Positions 16,728-27,124 of a stretch of DNA of 64,000 bases are shown in pieces. Location: assembly GCF_003334355.1 (NCBI RefSeq), contig NZ_QOWP01000007.1. One strand, given 5' to 3'. Position 1 is the stretch's first letter. Every line of letters begins with the position of its first letter. The translations under genes and the position numbers were made by a program. Source of the stretch: Escherichia coli (GTDB taxonomy: Bacteria; Pseudomonadota; Gammaproteobacteria; Enterobacterales; Enterobacteriaceae). The notes under the pieces were generated by a model. The model did no database searches. It worked only from the letters and a program-made list of their open reading frames with translations, and was not told the DNA's origin.

Positions 16728-19151
16728 ATGAAAATCCATACCACAGAGGCGCTCATGAAGGCTGAAATCAGCCGTAGAAGTCTGATGAAAACCTCCGCAC
16801 TTGGCAGTCTTGCGCTGGCAAGCAGTGCTTTCACTCTGCCATTTTCCCAAATGGTCCGGGCGGCAGAGGCTCCGGTAGAAGAGAAAGCGGTCTGGAGTTC
16901 CTGCACCGTTAACTGCGGGAGCCGCTGTCTGTTACGTTTGCATGTGAAAGATGACACCGTGTACTGGGTGGAGTCTGATACGACAGGTGACGACGTCTAC
17001 GGTAATCATCAGGTTCGAGCGTGTTTACGCGGGCGCTCTATCCGCCGACGGATGAATCATCCTGATAGGTTGAAATATCCCATGAAGCGCGTCGGCAAGC
17101 GCGGTGAAGGTAAATTTGAACGGATAAGTTGGGACGAAGCCCTGGATACCATCAGTGATAATCTTCGGCGGATCCTGAAAGATTACGGCAATGAGGCTGT
17201 ACATGTCCTGTACGGAACAGGCGTAGATGGCGGAAACATCACCAACTCAAACGTCCCGTACCGTCTGATGAACTCTTGCGGTGGTTTTCTCAGTCGCTAT
17301 GGCAGCTACAGTACCGCACAGATCAGTGCCGCAATGAGTTATATGTTCGGTGCCAATGATGGCAACAGCCCGGATGATATCGCCAATACGAAACTGGTCG
17401 TTATGTTCGGAAATAACCCGGCAGAAACGCGGATGAGCGGCGGTGGTGTCACTTACTACGTCGAGCAAGCCCGCGAACGTTCAAACGCACGCGTGATCGT
17501 CATCGATCCACGTTATAACGACACTGCTGCCGGGCGTGAAGATGAATGGCTGCCCATTCGCCCTGGCACCGATGGCGCACTGGCCTGTGCGATTGCCTGG
17601 GTACTGATTACTGAAAACATGGTCGATCAGCCATTTCTCGACAAATATTGTGTTGGTTACGATGAAAAAACGCTGCCCGCCAACGCACCACGTAACGCGC
17701 ATTATAAAGCCTATATTCTGGGCGAAGGGCCTGACGGCATAGCTAAAACGCCGGAATGGGCAGCAAAAATCACCAGCATCCCGGCAGAAAAAATTATCCA
17801 GTTGGCACGAGAGATCGGTTCAGCAAAACCTGCTTATATTTGTCAGGGTTGGGGGCCACAACGACATTCCAACGGCGAGCAAACATCCCGCGCTATTGCC
17901 ATGCTTTCCGTTCTCACCGGCAACGTCGGCATAAACGGCGGCAACTCAGGCGTACGCGAAGGTAGCTGGGATCTGGGGGTAGAATGGTTCCCGATGCTCG
18001 AGAATCCTGTTAAAACGCAGATTTCCGTCTTTACATGGACAGATGCCATCGACCATGGTACGGAAATGACCGCGACCCGTGATGGTGTTCGTGGAAAAGA
18101 AAAACTGGATGTCCCCATCAAGTTTTTATGGTGCTACGCCAGTAACACATTGATCAATCAACATGGCGACATCAATCACACCCATGAGGTGCTTCAGGAT
18201 GACAGCAAGTGCGAGATGATTGTTGGCATTGACCACTTCATGACGGCCTCGGCTAAGTATTGCGATATCCTGTTGCCCGACCTGATGCCAACAGAGCAAG
18301 AAGACCTTATCTCTCATGAATCTGCAGGGAATATGGGCTATGTGATCCTCGCCCAACCCGCAACCTCAGCAAAATTTGAACGCAAACCCATCTACTGGAT
18401 GCTGAGTGAAGTCGCCAAACGCTTAGGACCAGACGTTTATCAAACCTTTACTGAAGGTCGCAGTCAGCATGAATGGATCAAATATCTCCATGCGAAAACG
18501 AAGGAACGTAACCCTGAGATGCCCGACTACGAGGAGATGAAAACGACCGGGATCTTTAAGAAAAAATGCCCGGAAGAACACTACGTCGCTTTCCGCGCAT
18601 TCCGTGAAGATCCACAGGCAAACCCGTTGAAAACACCTTCGGGGAAAATCGAAATTTATTCTGAACGACTGGCGAAGATTGCAGATACCTGGGAATTGAA
18701 AAAAGATGAAATTATTCATCCCCTTCCTGCGTATACCCCAGGTTTTGATGGCTGGGACGATCCCCTGCGGAAAACCTATCCACTGCAGTTAACGGGCTTC
18801 CATTACAAAGCGCGTACCCACTCCAGCTACGGCAATATTGATGTGTTACAGCAGGCCTGCCCACAAGAGGTGTGGATCAACCCCATTGATGCTCAGGCAC
18901 GCGGTATCCGTCATGGCGATACCGTGCGGGTATTTAACAATAATGGAGAAATGCTGATTGCCGCAAAAGTGACTCCGCGTATTCTGCCTGGCGTTACCGC
19001 CATCGGGCAAGGTGCGTGGCTTAAAGCGGATATGTTTGGTGACCGGGTCGATCACGGCGGCAGTATCAATATTCTGACCTCTCACCGCCCTTCACCGCTG
19101 GCAAAGGGAAACCCGTCGCACAGCAATCTTGTCCAGATCGAAAAGGTTTAA
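16728..19151 (+). CDS. ynfF: Tat-exported molybdoenzyme, DmsA paralog
   Basis: 807 aa; SRRSLMKTSALGSLALA; tandem paralog of ynfE. Confidence 0.92.
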   Translation: MKIHTTEALMKAEISRRSLMKTSALGSLALASSAFTLPFSQMVRAAEAPVEEKAVWSSCTVNCGSRCLLRLHVKDDTVYWVESDTTGDDVYGNHQVRACLRGRSIRRRMNHPDRLKYPMKRVGKRGEGKFERISWDEALDTISDNLRRILKDYGNEAVHVLYGTGVDGGNITNSNVPYRLMNSCGGFLSRYGSYSTAQISAAMSYMFGANDGNSPDDIANTKLVVMFGNNPAETRMSGGGVTYYVEQARERSNARVIVIDPRYNDTAAGREDEWLPIRPGTDGALACAIAWVLITENMVDQPFLDKYCVGYDEKTLPANAPRNAHYKAYILGEGPDGIAKTPEWAAKITSIPAEKIIQLAREIGSAKPAYICQGWGPQRHSNGEQTSRAIAMLSVLTGNVGINGGNSGVREGSWDLGVEWFPMLENPVKTQISVFTWTDAIDHGTEMTATRDGVRGKEKLDVPIKFLWCYASNTLINQHGDINHTHEVLQDDSKCEMIVGIDHFMTASAKYCDILLPDLMPTEQEDLISHESAGNMGYVILAQPATSAKFERKPIYWMLSEVAKRLGPDVYQTFTEGRSQHEWIKYLHAKTKERNPEMPDYEEMKTTGIFKKKCPEEHYVAFRAFREDPQANPLKTPSGKIEIYSERLAKIADTWELKKDEIIHPLPAYTPGFDGWDDPLRKTYPLQLTGFHYKARTHSSYGNIDVLQQACPQEVWINPIDAQARGIRHGDTVRVFNNNGEMLIAAKVTPRILPGVTAIGQGAWLKADMFGDRVDHGGSINILTSHRPSPLAKGNPSHSNLVQIEKV

Positions 19152-19161
19152 GGAGTAGCCC

Positions 19162-19779
19162 ATGACCACACAATATGGATTTTTTATCGATTCCAGCCGC
19201 TGTACTGGCTGTAAAACCTGCGAACTGGCGTGCAAAGATTTTAAAGATCTTGGCCCGGAAGTCAGTTTCCGCCGTATTTATGAATACGCTGGCGGCGACT
19301 GGCAGGAAGATAATGGCGTCTGGCACCAGAACGTGTTCGCTTATTATCTCTCCATCTCCTGTAACCATTGCGATGACCCCGCATGTACAAAAGTCTGCCC
19401 CAGCGGCGCAATGCATAAGCGTGAAGATGGCTTTGTGGTGGTTGATGAAGATGTTTGTATCGGCTGCCGCTACTGCCACATGGCTTGTCCGTACGGCGCG
19501 CCACAGTACAATGCTGAAAAAGGGCACATGACGAAGTGCGATGGTTGTTATTCGCGCGTCGCCGAGGGGAAACAACCCATATGTGTCGAATCCTGCCCGC
19601 TGCGTGCACTTGAGTTCGGTCCAATTGAAGAGCTGCGCCAGAAGCACGGCACTCTTGCTGCCGTCGCGCCACTGCCGCGCGCGCATTTCACAAAACCCAA
19701 TATCGTTATCAAACCTAACGCCAACAGCCGCCCGACCGGCGATACCACTGGTTATCTGGCTAATCCGGAGGAAGTGTAA
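19162..19779 (+). CDS. ynfG: DMSO-reductase-type 4Fe-4S ferredoxin subunit
   Basis: 205 aa with four Cys clusters (CTGCKTCELACK, CNHCDDPACTKVCP, CIGCRYCHMACP, CDGC...). Confidence 0.92.
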   Translation: MTTQYGFFIDSSRCTGCKTCELACKDFKDLGPEVSFRRIYEYAGGDWQEDNGVWHQNVFAYYLSISCNHCDDPACTKVCPSGAMHKREDGFVVVDEDVCIGCRYCHMACPYGAPQYNAEKGHMTKCDGCYSRVAEGKQPICVESCPLRALEFGPIEELRQKHGTLAAVAPLPRAHFTKPNIVIKPNANSRPTGDTTGYLANPEEV

Positions 19780-19780
19780 A

Positions 19781-20635
19781 ATGGGAAATGGATGGCATGA
19801 GTGGCCACTGGTTATCTTTACCGTATTGGGTCAATGCGTAGTAGGCGCGCTGATTGTTAGCGGAATTGGCTGGTTCGCCGCCAAAAATGACGCAGACCGT
19901 CAGCGTATTGTCCGTGGCATGTTTTTCCTCTGGCTGTTGATGGGCGTCGGGTTTATTGCCTCTGTCATGCACCTGGGATCGCCACTGCGGGCGTTTAACT
20001 CGCTGAATCGAATCGGAGCTTCTGGTCTGAGTAACGAGATTGCTGCCGGTTCCATATTTTTTGCCGTTGGCGGATTATGGTGGCTGGTGGCAGTCATCGG
20101 TAAAATGCCGCAAGCGTTGGGGAAACTCTGGTTACTTTTCAGCATGGCGCTCGGCGTCATTTTCGTCTGGATGATGACCTGCGTGTATCAAATCGACACC
20201 GTGCCAACCTGGCATAACGGTTACACTACGCTGGCTTTCTTCCTGACGGTATTGTTGAGCGGTCCAATACTTGCTGCCGCAATTCTGCGGGCAGCTCGCG
20301 TTACATTTAATACCACACCATTTGCCATCATTAGCGTTCTGGCGCTGATCGCTTGTGCCGGGGTGATTGTGCTGCAAGGTTTGTCTCTGGCGTCTATTCA
20401 CTCATCCGTGCAACAAGCCAGCGCACTGGTACCAGATTACGCCTCCTTACAGGTCTGGCGTGTGGTATTGTTATGCGCAGGTCTTGGATGCTGGCTTTGC
20501 CCGCTCATTCGTCGCCGTGAACCTCACGTTGCCGGACTTATTCTGGGGCTAATCCTCATACTTGGCGGTGAGATGATCGGGCGTGTGCTCTTTTATGGCC
20601 TGCACATGACAGTAGGAATGGCTATTGCAGGTTAA
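19781..20635 (+). CDS. ynfH: DMSO-reductase-type membrane anchor subunit
   Basis: 284-aa polytopic ORF starting MGNGWHEWPLVIFTVLGQ 2 nt after ynfG stop. Confidence 0.9.
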   Translation: MGNGWHEWPLVIFTVLGQCVVGALIVSGIGWFAAKNDADRQRIVRGMFFLWLLMGVGFIASVMHLGSPLRAFNSLNRIGASGLSNEIAAGSIFFAVGGLWWLVAVIGKMPQALGKLWLLFSMALGVIFVWMMTCVYQIDTVPTWHNGYTTLAFFLTVLLSGPILAAAILRAARVTFNTTPFAIISVLALIACAGVIVLQGLSLASIHSSVQQASALVPDYASLQVWRVVLLCAGLGCWLCPLIRRREPHVAGLILGLILILGGEMIGRVLFYGLHMTVGMAIAG

Positions 20636-20677
20636 CAAATTGGTGCGGGGCAACCCGCACATTTCAGGATGTTAGGA

Positions 20678-21292
20678 ATGACCCATTTTTCACAGCAAGA
20701 TAATTTTTCTGTCGCGGCGCGCGTGTTGGGCGCGCTGTTTTATTACGCTCCAGAGAGTGCGGAAGCCGCACCTCTGGTTGCGGTACTCACCAGTGACGGC
20801 TGGGAAACTCAGTGGCCTCTACCAGAAGCGTCATTAGCGCCGCTGGTGACGGCTTTTCAGACACAGTGTGAAGAGACTCACGCCCAGGCCTGGCAGCGTT
20901 TGTTTGTCGGCCCGTGGGCACTGCCGTCTCCGCCGTGGGGGTCGGTCTGGCTGGATCGCGAATCTGTGCTGTTTGGCGATTCAACATTGGCACTTCGTCA
21001 GTGGATGCGCGAGAAAGGCATTCAGTTTGAAATGAAGCAAAACGAACCGGAAGATCATTTTGGTTCACTGCTGTTGATGGCTGCGTGGTTGGCGGAGAAT
21101 GGTCGCCAGACAGAATGCGAAGAATTGCTGGCATGGCACCTTTTTCCGTGGTCAACACGTTTTCTTGATGTTTTTATCGAAAAAGCAGAACACCCTTTCT
21201 ACCGTGCACTGGGTGAACTGGCTCGCTTAACGCTGGCGCAATGGCAATCACAACTGTTAATTCCTGTCGCGGTTAAACCGCTGTTTCGATAG
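20678..21292 (+). CDS. dmsD: Tat proofreading chaperone DmsD
   Basis: 204 aa MTHFSQQDNFSVAARVLGALFYYAPES. Confidence 0.9.
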   Translation: MTHFSQQDNFSVAARVLGALFYYAPESAEAAPLVAVLTSDGWETQWPLPEASLAPLVTAFQTQCEETHAQAWQRLFVGPWALPSPPWGSVWLDRESVLFGDSTLALRQWMREKGIQFEMKQNEPEDHFGSLLLMAAWLAENGRQTECEELLAWHLFPWSTRFLDVFIEKAEHPFYRALGELARLTLAQWQSQLLIPVAVKPLFR

Positions 21293-21486
21293 GATCACCG
21301 TAATATTGCCGGATGGTGACGATTACGCGCAATCCGGCAATAATAGGTTACAGTGTCACGTTTTTTTATCTCTTAAAGCACGCACTGCTTTTGCGGCTGG
21401 CCTCTTTTGCCGCAAAATAGTCGCCCGTGTTTCATTGCCCATTTCTGCTCATGCATCATCTACACATCTATCCGGATCTGCGCACT

Positions 21487-22743
21487 ATGTTCCGCCGTCT
21501 GCTTATCGCAACAGTCGTCGGTATTCTCGCGGCCTTTGCCGTTGCCGGGTTTCGTCATGCGATGCTGCTACTGGAGTGGTTGTTCCTCAATAATGACTCC
21601 GGCAGTCTGGTCAATGCAGCGACAAACCTTTCCCCCTGGCGACGGTTGCTAACTCCGGCGCTCGGCGGACTGGCGGCGGGTTTGTTGCTGATGGGCTGGC
21701 AGAAATTTACCCAACAACGCCCTCATGCGCCGACCGATTACATGGAAGCGTTGCAAACCGATGGACAGTTCGATTACGCAGCAAGCCTGGTTAAATCGCT
21801 TGCCTCTCTGCTGGTAGTAACCAGCGGCAGTGCAATTGGTCGCGAAGGTGCGATGATTCTTTTAGCTGCCCTTGCCGCCTCCTGTTTTGCCCAACGTTTT
21901 ACGCCACGCCAGGAGTGGAAATTATGGATCGCCTGTGGGGCCGCGGCGGGAATGGCTGCGGCCTATCGTGCCCCGCTTGCTGGCAGTTTATTTATAGCCG
22001 AAGTGCTGTTTGGCACTATGATGTTGGCCTCTCTCGGCCCGGTGATTATTTCCGCCGTCGTGGCATTGCTGGTTAGCAATCTGATTAATCATAGCGACGC
22101 GTTACTCTACAACGTACAACTCTCAGTGACGGTTCAGGCTCGTGACTATGCGCTGATTATCAGTACAGGTGTGCTGGCAGGTCTGTGCGGACCACTGTTG
22201 TTAACGTTAATGAACGCCTGTCATCGTGGATTTGTGAGTCTCAAACTTGCGCCGCCCTGGCAACTGGCACTAGGCGGGTTGATCGTGGGTCTGCTTTCCC
22301 TGTTCACACCTGCAGTGTGGGGCAACGGCTATAGCACCGTACAATCCTTTTTAACCGCCCCACCACTGTTAATGATCATTGCCGGGATCTTCCTTTGTAA
22401 ACTGTGTGCCGTGCTGGCGAGTAGCGGTTCCGGCGCACCCGGTGGGGTCTTTACACCGACGCTATTTATCGGTCTTGCCATTGGCATGTTGTATGGTCGT
22501 AGCCTGGGATTATGGTTCCCTGATGGCGAAGAAATTACACTTTTACTCGGATTGACCGGGATGGCGACACTGTTGGCGGCGACCACGCACGCGCCGATTA
22601 TGTCGACGTTGATGATATGTGAAATGACCGGGGAGTATCAGCTACTCCCCGGTTTATTGATTGCCTGCGTAATTGCGTCGGTAATTTCGCGGACGTTACA
22701 CCGTGACTCTATCTACCGCCAGCACACTGCGCAGCATAGCTAA
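21487..22743 (+). CDS. clcB: Voltage-gated ClC-type chloride channel ClcB
   Basis: 418 aa from [17 protein letters not shown]; motifs GSAIGREG and GAPGGVFTP. Confidence 0.88.
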
Positions 22744-23391
22744 GCGGATGTATTGCCCCAGTTCACGCTGTTCGGCGCGCGGCAGATAAGGCAGTTCACC
22801 AATGAGCGGTGCCGGAAGTTTTTTACCCAGCACATCAATGATTTCCGCATAATGCGCCAGTCCTGGGTTGATTCGGTTAGCCACCCAGCCAATGAGCGGC
22901 AGCCCGTCGTTGGCGATCGCCTGAGCTGTTAGCAGTGCATGGTTAATGCAACCTTCCTGAATACCGACAACCATCAACACCGGCAGTTGTTCCTGCACTA
23001 CCCATTCAGAGAGTGGACGCAAATCATTCATCAGACTGCGCCAGCCGCCAGTCCCTTCTACCACGACATGATCGACTTTTTCGGTCAGGTTTGCCAGGCC
23101 GTTTGAAATGAGGGTGTAATTGATTGGGCAACTGTGCGCCACGCTACTTTCTTCTTCGCTTAACGCGATAGGATTAACTGCTTCATAAGGCAGTTCGATG
23201 GTTGAAACACTCTGCAACACCAGGGCATCTTTATTACGCAGCCCTTCGGGTGTCTCTTTGCTCCCCTTCGCTACGGGTTTATATCCCGCAACCGTTTTTC
23301 CCTGGGAGGCTAACGCTTGTAGCAATGCGCGGGAAACCACCGTTTTCCCTACAGAAGTGTCTGTACCGGTAATAAAGAAACGCTTCAGCAT
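22696..23391 (-). CDS. ynfK: Dethiobiotin-synthetase paralog BioD2 (YnfK)
   Basis: 231 aa [27 protein letters not shown] (P-loop); 3' end overlaps clcB 3' end by 48 nt. Confidence 0.88.
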
Positions 23392-23515
23392 CACTAACTC
23401 CACCGTTATGCTTCACAAATATAAACCAGGAAAATAATTAACCTTGAAAGTCTAAGTTATGCTTTCCTGGCCCAAATTGAGATAGCGCAAATTTTGGTAG
23501 AACAGTTAAAAAATG

Positions 23516-24736
23516 TTAACCCTGCAACAGACGAATCAACAAAGAACCGTTATACATCGCGTCTTTTACCAGTGCAGCGCCTGCCATCGTGCCCTGGTTA
23601 GAAAACTGAGTACTCTCAACGCTGATGTGCTGACTATACGCAGGAAGGGCCTGCTGAAGGATGCTGTCTGAGATGACCGGGAAGAGGATATCTGCCGCTT
23701 TACTTAACGGTGAGCCAATCAGTATTTTTTGTGGGTTAAATAAATTCACCATGATGGCAAGAATGCGCCCGACATGCGCGCCCACCCCGGTAATGATGTC
23801 TTTTGCCAGTAGATCGCCGCGCAATGCCGCCTGACACAATGAGTCCACGGTTAACGGTTGTCCATGTAACATCGAGCTCATGGATTGATTAAGACGCAGC
23901 TGTGCCAGCTCAAGAATACTGTCCACGCTGGCGATGGTTTCGAGGCAGCCGTGATTCCCGCAATAACAGCGTTTCCCATACGGGTCGACCTGTGTGTGGC
24001 CTATTTCCACGAGACTACTGCTGCCTGCGTGTAGCAGATGACCATCGGTAATGACGCCCGCCCCCACGTTGTGATCGATAACCACCTGAATCACATCGCG
24101 CGCCCCGCGTGAGGCACCAAACAAGGCCTCTGCCATCGTCCATGCGCTGATATCATGCTGAATATAAACCGGAACGCCGGTATGCTGCTCCAGCGCCTCG
24201 CCGAGCGGCATCTCTTTTACATCCTCGTAGAACGGCATGCGATGTACAATACCATTTTCCGTATCAATAATTCCCGGCAAGGTTATGGCAATCGAAGTTA
24301 GACGCTCAAGTTTTTTCTGGTGGCGGATAAAAAACTGATCGATATGGGAAATAATACGATCCAGCAATGGCAAGTCATCTTTTAACGCCAGTTCCTGCGA
24401 CTCTTCCACCACCAGTTTGCTGCTCAGATCGCGCAGAGCAAGGAAAATCTCCCCGCGACTAATGCGCAGAGAAAGATAGTGCCAGGCTTCAGTTTCAACC
24501 ACCAGCCCCACCGCCGGACGGCCACGGTTCCCCGCTTCTTTGATTTCCAGCTCTTGCACCAGGTGTGCTTCGAGCATCTCACGGACAATTTTAGTGATAC
24601 TGGCAGGAGCCAGTTGCGCCAGACGGGAAAGATCGATACGCGAGACTGGACCAAGCTGATCAATCAGGCGATAAACCGCGCCCGCGTTGGTCTGCTTTAT
24701 TTGATCAATGTGCCCAGGCTGGTTTTCAGCAACCAC
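23516..24736 (-). CDS. mlc: ROK-family global regulator Mlc (DgsA)
   Basis: 406 aa MVAENQPGHIDQIKQTNAGAVYRLIDQLGPVSRIDL; GTG start. Confidence 0.92.
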   Translation of the reverse strand: MVAENQPGHIDQIKQTNAGAVYRLIDQLGPVSRIDLSRLAQLAPASITKIVREMLEAHLVQELEIKEAGNRGRPAVGLVVETEAWHYLSLRISRGEIFLALRDLSSKLVVEESQELALKDDLPLLDRIISHIDQFFIRHQKKLERLTSIAITLPGIIDTENGIVHRMPFYEDVKEMPLGEALEQHTGVPVYIQHDISAWTMAEALFGASRGARDVIQVVIDHNVGAGVITDGHLLHAGSSSLVEIGHTQVDPYGKRCYCGNHGCLETIASVDSILELAQLRLNQSMSSMLHGQPLTVDSLCQAALRGDLLAKDIITGVGAHVGRILAIMVNLFNPQKILIGSPLSKAADILFPVISDSILQQALPAYSQHISVESTQFSNQGTMAGAALVKDAMYNGSLLIRLLQG

Positions 24737-24747
24737 CGCATACTCCC

Positions 24748-24770
24748 TATATTTTCGCGCTCCGAAATAA
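24748..24770. promoter_or_regulatory. Candidate Mlc operator (TATATTTTCGCGCTCCGAAATAA) just upstream of mlc
   Basis: AT-rich arms TATTTTCG / CGAAATAA form an inverted repeat around a CG-rich centre, resembling Mlc/NagC-type sites; mlc is autoregulated. Confidence 0.4.
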
Positions 24771-24870
24771 TCTGTAGGCTATGGTGAAGCACTTCAATAC
24801 GTGTCGTCAAATTTTTACTTAGGCATGTGATTAACAGCACATTTTTCGGGCTTTTTCGCTGAAATTTCCC

Positions 24871-25764
24871 TCACCTGAGAGCATTCAGCAGATGAATACG
24901 AAAGTTACGCGCAGCCGGACTTTGTTCATGATGTTTCGGCCAGACCAACCACATTTCAGAAACCGCATCCTCTTCAGCAATCGGCACCCAGCGCATTTCG
25001 TTGAGCTGAACACGTTTAAATGACGCAGGCAAAATTGAAACACCCAGACCGGCGGAAACCAGACCGATGATGGTCATTGCCTCGCCCACCTCCTGAGTGA
25101 TGACGGGCGTCAAATGGTAACGTCGCATCAGCCCGAGAATATCGTCATACAGCCCTGTCCCGACGTGCGGATCAAAAAAGACAAAGGGTTCTTTCGCCAG
25201 TTCAGCCAGCGTTACATTCGGGTTATTTGCCAGGGGATGATCGTGCGGGATCATCGCCATAAGCGGTTCATGGACGATGACTGCGTGTTCAAGCGACTCC
25301 GGTAACGCTGTGTTACGCAGCAATCCCATATCCAGCGTTCCTTCAATGAGCGGAGCGATTTGCTCGCGAGTGTTCATTTCGCGGGTTTGTAAATGGACAT
25401 CAGGATAATCACGGCGAAACAGCGATAACGTATCGGACACCGCCCGAATAAAAGGAGCCGACGAAGTAAAACCAATGCGCAACTCCCCCGCTTCACCCTG
25501 ATGCAGCCTTTCAGCGCGAGCGGCAGCGTCATCCACCATAGACAGGATTTGCCGACTATCTGCAAGAAACTGTTTTCCTGCTGCCGTCAGCAATACACTG
25601 CGATTGGTTCGTGCCAGCAGTCGGGCACCAATTTGTTGCTCCAGCGCCTGAATCTGCTGACTTAGCGGCGGTTGCGAAATATTCAGGCGGGCAGCGGCGC
25701 GCCCGAAATGCAGCTCTTCCGCAACAGCAACAAAGTAACGCAGATGACGAAGTTCAATATTCAT
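24871..25764 (-). CDS. ynfL: LysR-family transcriptional regulator YnfL
   Basis: 297 aa; N-terminal HTH MNIELRHLRYFVAVAEELHFGRAAARLNISQPPLSQQI. Confidence 0.88.
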   Translation of the reverse strand: MNIELRHLRYFVAVAEELHFGRAAARLNISQPPLSQQIQALEQQIGARLLARTNRSVLLTAAGKQFLADSRQILSMVDDAAARAERLHQGEAGELRIGFTSSAPFIRAVSDTLSLFRRDYPDVHLQTREMNTREQIAPLIEGTLDMGLLRNTALPESLEHAVIVHEPLMAMIPHDHPLANNPNVTLAELAKEPFVFFDPHVGTGLYDDILGLMRRYHLTPVITQEVGEAMTIIGLVSAGLGVSILPASFKRVQLNEMRWVPIAEEDAVSEMWLVWPKHHEQSPAARNFRIHLLNALR

Positions 25765-25870
25765 ATTTAAAACATCTTATTTGAGATTATTAATATATTA
25801 GACAGAACAATTCGATTTTCCTACCCTATGTATAAGCCTGATCTACAGGCATATTTAGCAAGGATTTCAA

Positions 25871-27124
25871 GTGAGCCGTACTACAACTGTTGATGGCGCT
25901 CCGGCAAGCGACACTGACAAGCAAAGCATTTCTCAGCCAAATCAATTTATTAAACGCGGTACGCCGCAATTTATGCGCGTCACCCTGGCGCTGTTCTCTG
26001 CCGGACTGGCAACATTTGCACTTCTCTATTGTGTGCAGCCTATCCTTCCGGTGCTTTCGCAGGAGTTTGGCTTAACCCCCGCGAACAGTAGTATTTCACT
26101 GTCCATTTCCACGGCGATGTTGGCTATTGGTTTGCTGTTTACTGGCCCGCTATCCGATGCCATTGGTCGCAAACCAGTGATGGTCACGGCGCTACTGTTG
26201 GCCTCCATTTGTACGTTACTTTCGACAATGATGACCAGCTGGCACGGCATTTTGATTATGCGCGCCTTGATTGGGCTTTCGTTAAGTGGCGTGGCAGCTG
26301 TTGGCATGACTTATCTTAGCGAGGAAATCCATCCCAGTTTCGTGGCCTTTTCAATGGGGTTGTATATCAGCGGCAACTCAATTGGCGGCATGAGCGGACG
26401 CTTAATTAGCGGTGTCTTCACGGACTTTTTCAACTGGCGAATTGCTCTGGCGGCAATCGGTTGTTTCGCGCTGGCCTCGGCGTTGATGTTCTGGAAAATC
26501 CTCCCTGAATCACGCCATTTTCGCCCGACTTCGCTGCGCCCTAAGACGTTGTTTATCAACTTTCGTCTGCACTGGCGTGACCGGGGATTACCGTTATTGT
26601 TCGCAGAAGGCTTTTTGCTGATGGGGTCGTTCGTCACGCTGTTTAATTACATCGGCTATCGGTTGATGCTCTCCCCCTGGCATGTCAGTCAGGCCGTGGT
26701 TGGCTTATTATCGCTGGCTTATTTGACCGGTACATGGAGCTCACCCAAAGCCGGAACCATGACCACCCGCTATGGGCGTGGTCCAGTGATGTTGTTTTCG
26801 ACGGGGGTTATGCTGTTTGGTTTACTGATGACCTTATTCAGCTCGCTGTGGCTGATCTTTGCCGGAATGTTACTCTTCTCAGCAGGATTCTTCGCAGCCC
26901 ACTCAGTAGCCAGCAGCTGGATCGGCCCCCGCGCAAAACGCGCTAAAGGCCAGGCCTCCTCGCTGTATCTGTTCAGTTACTATCTGGGGTCGAGTATTGC
27001 CGGGACGCTGGGTGGTGTTTTCTGGCATAACTATGGCTGGAACGGCGTCGGCGCATTTATTGCTCTGATGCTGGTCATTGCTCTGCTGGTCGGGACGCGT
27101 TTGCATCGTCGTCTGCACGCCTGA
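25871..27124 (+). CDS. ynfM: MFS transporter YnfM
   Basis: 417 aa polytopic membrane ORF divergent from ynfL. Confidence 0.88.
   Translation: MSRTTTVDGAPASDTDKQSISQPNQFIKRGTPQFMRVTLALFSAGLATFALLYCVQPILPVLSQEFGLTPANSSISLSISTAMLAIGLLFTGPLSDAIGRKPVMVTALLLASICTLLSTMMTSWHGILIMRALIGLSLSGVAAVGMTYLSEEIHPSFVAFSMGLYISGNSIGGMSGRLISGVFTDFFNWRIALAAIGCFALASALMFWKILPESRHFRPTSLRPKTLFINFRLHWRDRGLPLLFAEGFLLMGSFVTLFNYIGYRLMLSPWHVSQAVVGLLSLAYLTGTWSSPKAGTMTTRYGRGPVMLFSTGVMLFGLLMTLFSSLWLIFAGMLLFSAGFFAAHSVASSWIGPRAKRAKGQASSLYLFSYYLGSSIAGTLGGVFWHNYGWNGVGAFIALMLVIALLVGTRLHRRLHA

Follow-up and report, generated by a model that had tools for sequence, protein, structure and literature searches.

The 48-nt convergent overlap of clcB and ynfK in Escherichia coli and a conserved stem-loop within clcB that probably forms the 3′ end of the ynfK mRNA

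The window analyzed here is a 64,000-nucleotide stretch of K-12-like Escherichia coli DNA (NCBI RefSeq assembly GCF_003334355.1, contig NZ_QOWP01000007.1) in which two convergent genes, clcB and ynfK, meet tail to tail. The clcB gene is located on the + strand at 21487..22743, encodes 418 amino acids in the K-12 annotation, and is identified by the open reading frame list, RefSeq, and homology to ClcA structures. The ynfK gene, currently named bidA in K-12 and "bioD" by PGAP, is located on the − strand at 22696..23391 and encodes a 231-residue paralogue of dethiobiotin synthetase, as judged from the open reading frame list, RefSeq, and BioD structures; both proteins of the pair thus have homologues of solved structure. 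The clcB TAA stop codon is found at 22741-22743, and the TAA stop codon of ynfK is the reverse complement of TTA at 22696-22698. Each gene therefore ends inside the open reading frame of the other on the opposite strand, and the overlap extends over exactly the 48 nt (22696..22743) given for it in the preliminary description. It contains ClcB residues 404-418 plus stop and YnfK residues 217-231 plus stop. The triplet boundaries of the two genes coincide, placing the overlap in the same codon register: the ynfK stop corresponds to clcB codon 404 (TTA, Leu404) and the clcB stop (TAA) to ynfK codon 217 (TTA, Leu217). RefSeq carries the same overlap in a K-12 derivative, where clcB ends at 4444 and bioD at 4397, and it is likewise annotated in MG1655, with clcB at 1665315..1666571 and bidA at 1666524..1667219 (window coordinates equal MG1655 coordinates minus 1643828).

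The clcB start codon differs between annotations, being ATG 21487 (418 amino acids) in K-12 and ATG 21451 (430 amino acids) in PGAP, within a reading frame that is open from GTG 21427. The longer PGAP form corresponds to a ClcB N-terminus, MH/QRL(H/N)x(Y/F)P, found in Klebsiella, Raoultella, Kluyvera, Salmonella, and Dryocola. Because this N-terminus is matched in five genera, the K-12 clcB start may be 12 codons too short.

To follow the overlap across genomes, an 801-nt query around it was used within E. coli, clcB relatives were sought in one genome per species, and further loci were fetched through YnfK homologues. Of 5426 complete E. coli genomes searched, 5421 carry this locus at an identity of ≥95%. 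The one-per-species scan recovered clcB relatives in Escherichia, Citrobacter, Salmonella, Cedecea and related strains, and Entomohabitans, with an overlap of 45 or 48 nt wherever both genes occur. Among the loci retrieved through YnfK homologues, those of Klebsiella, Raoultella, Kluyvera, Scandinavium, Buttiauxella, and Dryocola overlap by 48 nt and that of Salmonella enterica by 45 nt. An overlap of 45-48 nt is retained in at least 12 genera of the Enterobacteriaceae, and in each case the stop codon of one gene is a Leu or Ser codon in its partner. YnfK is far better conserved than ClcB, with 84-95% identity to the E. coli protein versus 55-80% for ClcB.

The YnfK protein is 231 amino acids long in 28 of 28 genomes, including three, from Kosakonia, Pseudescherichia, and Trabulsiella, that lack clcB and nevertheless retain the (V/A)DR motif. 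Its alignment with BioD structures covers residues 1-220, where BioD stops, and residues 221-231 therefore form an 11-residue extension. The conserved tail, ..L-x-(V/A/I)-(D/E)-R-x-x-(A/V/M), ends the protein. ClcB is homologous to ClcA structures over residues 5-402, and the overlapped residues 404-418 constitute a cytoplasmic tail after helix R with a conserved S-(I/V)-Y-R-Q core. These alignments show both C-terminal tails to be genuine and conserved. Misannotation as the cause of the overlap was considered and ruled out, since the tails are conserved and stop codons are independent of start-codon calls; together with the presence of the locus in 5421 E. coli genomes, the cross-genus overlap, and the constant YnfK length, this argues against chance as well as artefact. 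Judged by comparative evidence, the overlap is an old, doubly constrained arrangement of a convergent pair of overlapping coding sequences.

Individual genomes depart from this arrangement. In E. coli E69, Gln412 of the ClcB tail is replaced by a stop codon (CAG to TAG, locus L009 2761-2763, equivalent to window 22720-22722), a change that is synonymous in ynfK (CTG to CTA, Leu) and that leaves ClcB 7 residues shorter, with an overlap of 27 nt. Citrobacter sp. Awk 4 and NCU1 share a deletion of ~1.1 kb relative to Citrobacter R56 (loci L020 ~3959-4249 and L021 ~3996-4312), which has removed the clcB promoter and the first ~920 nt of the gene, leaving a 335-nt 3′ remnant. In NCU1 (L021) the remnant has acquired stops in the ClcB frame and a deletion of ~15 nt between the hairpin described below and the ynfK stop, and ynfK is intact. 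As read from these sequences, the E69 and Citrobacter relaxations fit a doubly constrained overlap.

Conserved convergent overlapping genes have been described in prokaryotes by Rogozin et al. 2002 and by Johnson & Chisholm 2004 (both cited in PMC2478687). The clcB-ynfK pair resembles the convergent overlaps treated there in that the 3′ ends of conserved genes overlap, a C-terminus is extended into the neighbor, and both frames are under purifying selection. It differs from the "long overlap" class of the same source (60-bp) by its smaller size of 48 nt, and from the long convergent overlaps of Pallejà et al. (PMC2478687), which are found mostly in close relatives only, by spanning many genera. 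The overlap is thus an ordinary, annotated, catalogued, and conserved convergent overlap, unusual only in the breadth of its conservation.

Since each mRNA must include its own stop codon for normal translation, the two transcripts are necessarily antisense to one another over the overlap. This requirement, noted in the preliminary description, holds on logical grounds and agrees both with the listing of the pair as an excludon (PMC12288877) and with a Rho termination peak situated beyond the overlap (PMC7815308). The excludon listing comes from ExcludonFinder (2025), in which clcB-bidA is one of 165 convergent excludons detected in at least 50% of 58 MG1655 transcriptomes (PMC12288877). The pair is like other convergent excludons of that study in that neighboring convergent mRNAs overlap. 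It is unlike classical excludons, which are defined by a long-UTR overlap and mutually exclusive expression: the clcB-ynfK overlap is forced by the coding sequences and is known as a transcript overlap.

As there is no intergenic DNA, any terminator must sit in a coding region. In a terminator and promoter scan, a single stem-loop (22626-22654) stood out and is the only strong hairpin nearby; the total number of matches in the scan was not in excess over shuffles (6 vs 4.4). The GC-rich stem-loop at 22627..22653, assigned to the − strand as a proposal, was defined by the scan, by folding, and by conservation. Its arms are at 22627-22637 and 22643-22653 and its loop at 22638-22642. The stem of 11-12 bp occupies clcB codons 381-389 (T-G-E-Y-Q-L-L-P-G), 43 nt downstream of the ynfK stop on the − strand and 90 nt before the clcB stop, with a predicted ΔG in E. 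coli of −21.5 kcal/mol on the − strand and −21.7 kcal/mol on the + strand. No family was matched in an Rfam scan of 19000-27000 at E ≤ 1. A promoter-like site on the − strand (22641-22612) was dismissed, as its 9/12 match is not significant. The overlap itself was known, and the hairpin is the new detail, with no earlier description of it found in our literature search.

We aligned clcB codons from 16 genomes to examine synonymous conservation. The alignment contains 175 columns with a conserved amino acid and at least four-fold degeneracy, only three of which have an invariant codon, and all three are in the hairpin arms: ACC at 22627, CTC at 22645, and CCC at 22648. The longest invariant nucleotide run of clcB in the same 16 genomes, 22621-22631, abuts the hairpin. 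When the comparison was extended to 23 genomes, only ACC and CCC were still invariant, and the other highly uniform columns consisted of preferred codons. CCC is the rarest Pro codon in E. coli, and CTC is also rare. CTC is changed to CTG in exactly the four genera that have a Gln codon (CAA/CAG) in place of the paired Glu codon GAG, a G-C to C-G covariation that may have arisen once, within one clade. Rare-codon pausing is unlikely to account for the invariant CTC and CCC, because the replacement of CTC by the common CTG coincides exactly with the change in its pairing partner. Only one pair has undergone a double change, and the main weight is therefore placed on the invariant rare codons.

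When synonymous codons of the 11-residue hairpin peptide were resampled, the mean ΔG was −6.4 kcal/mol versus the observed −21.5, and only ~1e-4 of samples were as stable. The invariant synonymous sites, the covariation, and a stability beyond what the peptide requires argue for selection at the nucleotide level, and on these comparative grounds they show the hairpin to be a selected nucleic-acid structure rather than a by-product of the protein motif. The same data bear on the possibility that nothing at this locus functions beyond coding, with the overlap fixed by accident as stop codons drifted and the palindrome a product of the CLC motif and codon preference, or else a DNA-level feature such as a protein-binding palindrome. 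In same-register antisense, stop codons are rare, and read-through tails arise easily, which counts for such a reading, as does the lack of any Rfam match. Long convergent overlaps are also tolerated according to the literature (PMC2478687). However, the YnfK tail is kept in genomes without clcB, the hairpin is far more stable than the peptide demands, the invariant CCC and CTC codons are rare rather than preferred, a compensatory change exists, and transitions are tolerated asymmetrically between the strands, as detailed below, which points to RNA rather than DNA. We consider this reading highly improbable.

The palindrome folds on both strands, and folding energies alone are not decisive as to strand, the mean ΔG over 17 genomes being −16.8 for the + strand and −17.7 for the − strand. 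The − strand fold is the more stable in 12 of 18 non-Escherichia genomes, and five or six lineages, including Buttiauxella and Entomohabitans, prefer the + strand. The proportion of cells in which the outer nine pairs form is 96% for the − strand and 87.5% for the + strand; for all eleven pairs it is 89.4% and 86.7%, respectively. The variable wobble sites (GGG to GGA, GAG to GAA, GGT/GGC) give a G·U pair in the − strand RNA and an A·C mismatch on the + strand. There are three C wobbles at which a C-to-T change would be tolerable only on the + strand; at these, ACC and CCC never vary, CTC to CTT is limited to Buttiauxella and Escherichia sp. MOD1, and the only other CTC change is the covarying CTG. 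A rough count of independent events gives p ~0.03 in favor of the − strand, a figure confounded by the codon preference for GAA over GAG. The hairpin persists in the 335-nt clcB remnants of the two Citrobacter species. Assignment of the hairpin to the − strand, i.e., to the ynfK transcript, is thus moderately supported by these comparisons.

An alternative is that the hairpin acts on the + strand in the clcB mRNA, either as a pause or stability element or as a translation-suppressed intrinsic terminator that guards ynfK from untranslated transcripts. The scan calls a terminator on this strand, with a 12-bp stem followed by TATTGATTGC, and the + strand fold is the slightly more stable of the two in E. 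coli. The tract after the stem reads UUUAUUGAUU in E. coli and, owing to Leu codons TTA and TTG, is rich in U in Escherichia as well as in roughly half of the remaining lineages; in consequence, the hairpin looks like an intrinsic terminator placed 80-90 nt ahead of the clcB stop. Furthermore, pairing is kept only on this strand in Buttiauxella, Escherichia sp. MOD1 (CTT), and Entomohabitans. In about half of the genera, however, the tract reads CUGCUG.., and it is missing as a U tract in Salmonella, the Cedecea group, Dryocola, and Citrobacter R56. Of 24 sequences, 14 have internal A·C mismatches on the + strand (pairs 27-43 and 30-40), the hairpin is kept in clcB pseudogene remnants, and termination 80-90 nt before the stop would generate non-stop mRNAs. 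For these reasons we regard a role in the clcB mRNA as distinctly unlikely. Separately, Escherichia shares with several other genera the sequence TTA TTG ATT for the Leu-Leu-Ile codons at 22654-22665 on the + strand, and both TTA and TTG are rare Leu codons.

On the − strand, the stem is followed by the tail CAUUUCAC, in which the U tract is only UUU, although invariant. Directly 3′ of the hairpin a composition scan identified a C-rich, G-poor, rut-like tract at 22596..22625 (− strand; 8 C and 2 G in 30 nt), which is the most C-skewed stretch in the region. It contains CAUUUC in 23 of 24 genomes, and GAA is fixed there in 23 of 23 intact clcB genes. This arrangement, in which the stem-loop lacks a U-rich tail and a C>G tract comes next, falls within a published Rho-dependent termination region on the − strand, for which Adams et al. 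2021 (PMC7815308 supplementary file 2) reported a bicyclomycin-sensitive peak at MG1655 1666514, equivalent to window 22686. The peak is 10 nt beyond the ynfK stop and thus past the overlap, its position being approximate to ~800 nt because the method uses 800-nt windows. The region is classed as "primary" for ynfK and "antisense" to clcB, with upstream/downstream reads of 85/11 in untreated cells and 292/159 with bicyclomycin, a Rho score of 4.2, and p = 1.5e-6 (PMC7815308). Termination downstream of ynfK is therefore bicyclomycin-sensitive at this resolution of ~800 nt. The curated Term-seq tables of Adams et al. contain no 3′ end for ynfK or clcB, and apart from the Rho entry there is no record in MG1655 1666300-1667999 (PMC7815308). 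Both genes are weakly expressed in the expression datasets examined.

Dar & Sorek 2018 (PMC6061677) found that the 3′ ends that Rho-dependent transcripts have at steady state lie just past stable stem-loops without U tracts. Such stem-loops also occur inside downstream coding regions and are followed by a C>G tract (PMC6061677). The ynfK hairpin is like this class in having no real U tract, in belonging to a bicyclomycin-sensitive region, in the C>G stretch that comes next, and in its position within the coding sequence of a neighbor. It is unlike that class, for which 3′ ends were mapped, in that the ynfK hairpin is assigned from sequence, and also in being embedded in the conserved ion-pathway motif of clcB. 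Owing to the latter, it is maintained purely through synonymous sites and one compensated amino acid change. By analogy, the hairpin best fits the known class of stem-loops that set and shield the ends of mRNAs terminated by Rho, of which it would be a modest new member, and it is probably a 3′-end-forming and protective element of the ynfK mRNA.

A comparable element for clcB was sought within ynfK. When 22720-22900 was folded as + strand RNA, its stability did not exceed that of shuffled sequences (z = +1.2). Nor does ynfK have a comparable cluster of invariant synonymous sites, past the clcB stop or elsewhere, apart from the GTA codon 226, which is forced by ClcB Tyr410. As no conserved clcB terminator was found in ynfK, clcB transcript ends are probably diffuse.

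The explanation that we favor, somewhat on the better side of even, combines an ancient overlap of 45-48 nt with a clcB-embedded stem-loop that ends the ynfK transcript. Transcription of ynfK, and of mlc-ynfK if the two are co-transcribed, would pass the ynfK stop into clcB antisense, where Rho would end the transcript. Exonucleases acting 3′ to 5′ would then trim the ynfK RNA back to the hairpin, following the model of Dar and Sorek 2018, and the hairpin would shield the ynfK mRNA and define its 3′ end. This suggests that the ynfK mRNA is antisense to ~117 nt of clcB, its last ~117 nt, and not just 48. A complete clcB mRNA would be antisense to the final 48 nt of ynfK or more, and clcB transcripts would probably end diffusely, through Rho or polymerase collision. 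The default expectation is that the antisense overlap has little or no regulatory effect on either gene.

It is also possible that the pair is a regulatory excludon, in line with the coupling of expression suggested in the preliminary description, in which clcB and ynfK antagonize each other by way of colliding polymerases and/or RNase III cutting the mRNA duplex. The presence of clcB-bidA in the MG1655 convergent list (PMC12288877) and the conservation of the arrangement in many genera would be in keeping with this. According to FNR ChIP and expression data, ynfK and the ynfEFGH-dmsD operon, which lies upstream of clcB, are both direct targets of activation by FNR, and both sides may thus be transcribed anaerobically. 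However, the listing is derived from coverage overlap alone, which is automatic when coding sequences overlap, and in untreated cells Rho confines antisense read-through into clcB to ~13% of the coverage of ynfK. Dual coding constraint explains the conservation without regulation, and three genera have lost clcB with ynfK unchanged. No functional or expression-perturbation study of the clcB-ynfK pair was found in our literature search. Mutual antagonism appears unlikely to us on this balance.

With respect to the regulators of ynfK, the FNR data assign no transcription start site to the gene. The mlc-ynfK intergenic region (23392-23515) contains no FNR consensus at ≤2 mismatches, and the best candidate there is TTGCGCTATCTCAA at ~23475-23488 on the − strand, with 3 mismatches. 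Genomic SELEX of the neighboring LysR regulator YnfL (HusR) produced a weak peak (intensity 72) within ynfK, between clcB and dgsA/mlc (PMC12844172 Table 1).

A further possibility is that the palindrome serves as a coding-embedded two-way insulator, ending and stabilizing the ynfK mRNA on the − strand and terminating only untranslated clcB transcripts on the + strand. We think this very unlikely. If it were true, the pair would be insulated or reciprocally tuned in anaerobiosis, with FNR driving both flanking units, and it would constitute a regulatory excludon built wholly from synonymous sites of a transporter ion-pathway motif.

Bidirectional intrinsic terminators between convergent genes were reportedly described by Ju and colleagues in 2019. 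They are also the subject of Wang et al. 2022 (bioRxiv 10.1101/2022.10.23.513370). The clcB hairpin is like them in that one palindrome is present for a convergent pair, one flank of which is A-rich and the other U-rich in E. coli. It is unlike them in that it lies in an open reading frame rather than in intergenic DNA, its flanking tracts are weak, and the + strand tract is not conserved. Kosakonia, which lacks clcB, instead has a canonical bidirectional terminator directly past ynfK.

In the three genera that lack clcB, the ynfK stop is followed at a distance of 0-15 nt by a stable stem-loop, which also counts toward the − strand assignment of the clcB hairpin; it lies at L023 3697-3727 in Kosakonia, L025 3706-3730 in Pseudescherichia, and L029 3209-3232 in Trabulsiella. 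That of Kosakonia is the canonical bidirectional intrinsic terminator, with the sequence AAAAAGCCCCTCATCGGAGGGGCTTTT. The Trabulsiella stem, CCGGGCAG..CTGCCCGG followed by UCAUUCAC, is like the arm of the Klebsiella-type clcB hairpin and its CAUUUCAC tail, and may be a relic of the clcB hairpin.

The hairpin that we assign to the ynfK transcript would represent a natural case in which the RNA 3′-end element of one gene is written in the synonymous sites of the opposing gene, with a compensated amino acid change in a conserved CLC motif. It would call for caution in codon optimization or recoding of clcB and in dN/dS analyses of the region. The pair may also serve as a test case for how convergent genes without intergenic DNA obtain defined mRNA ends.
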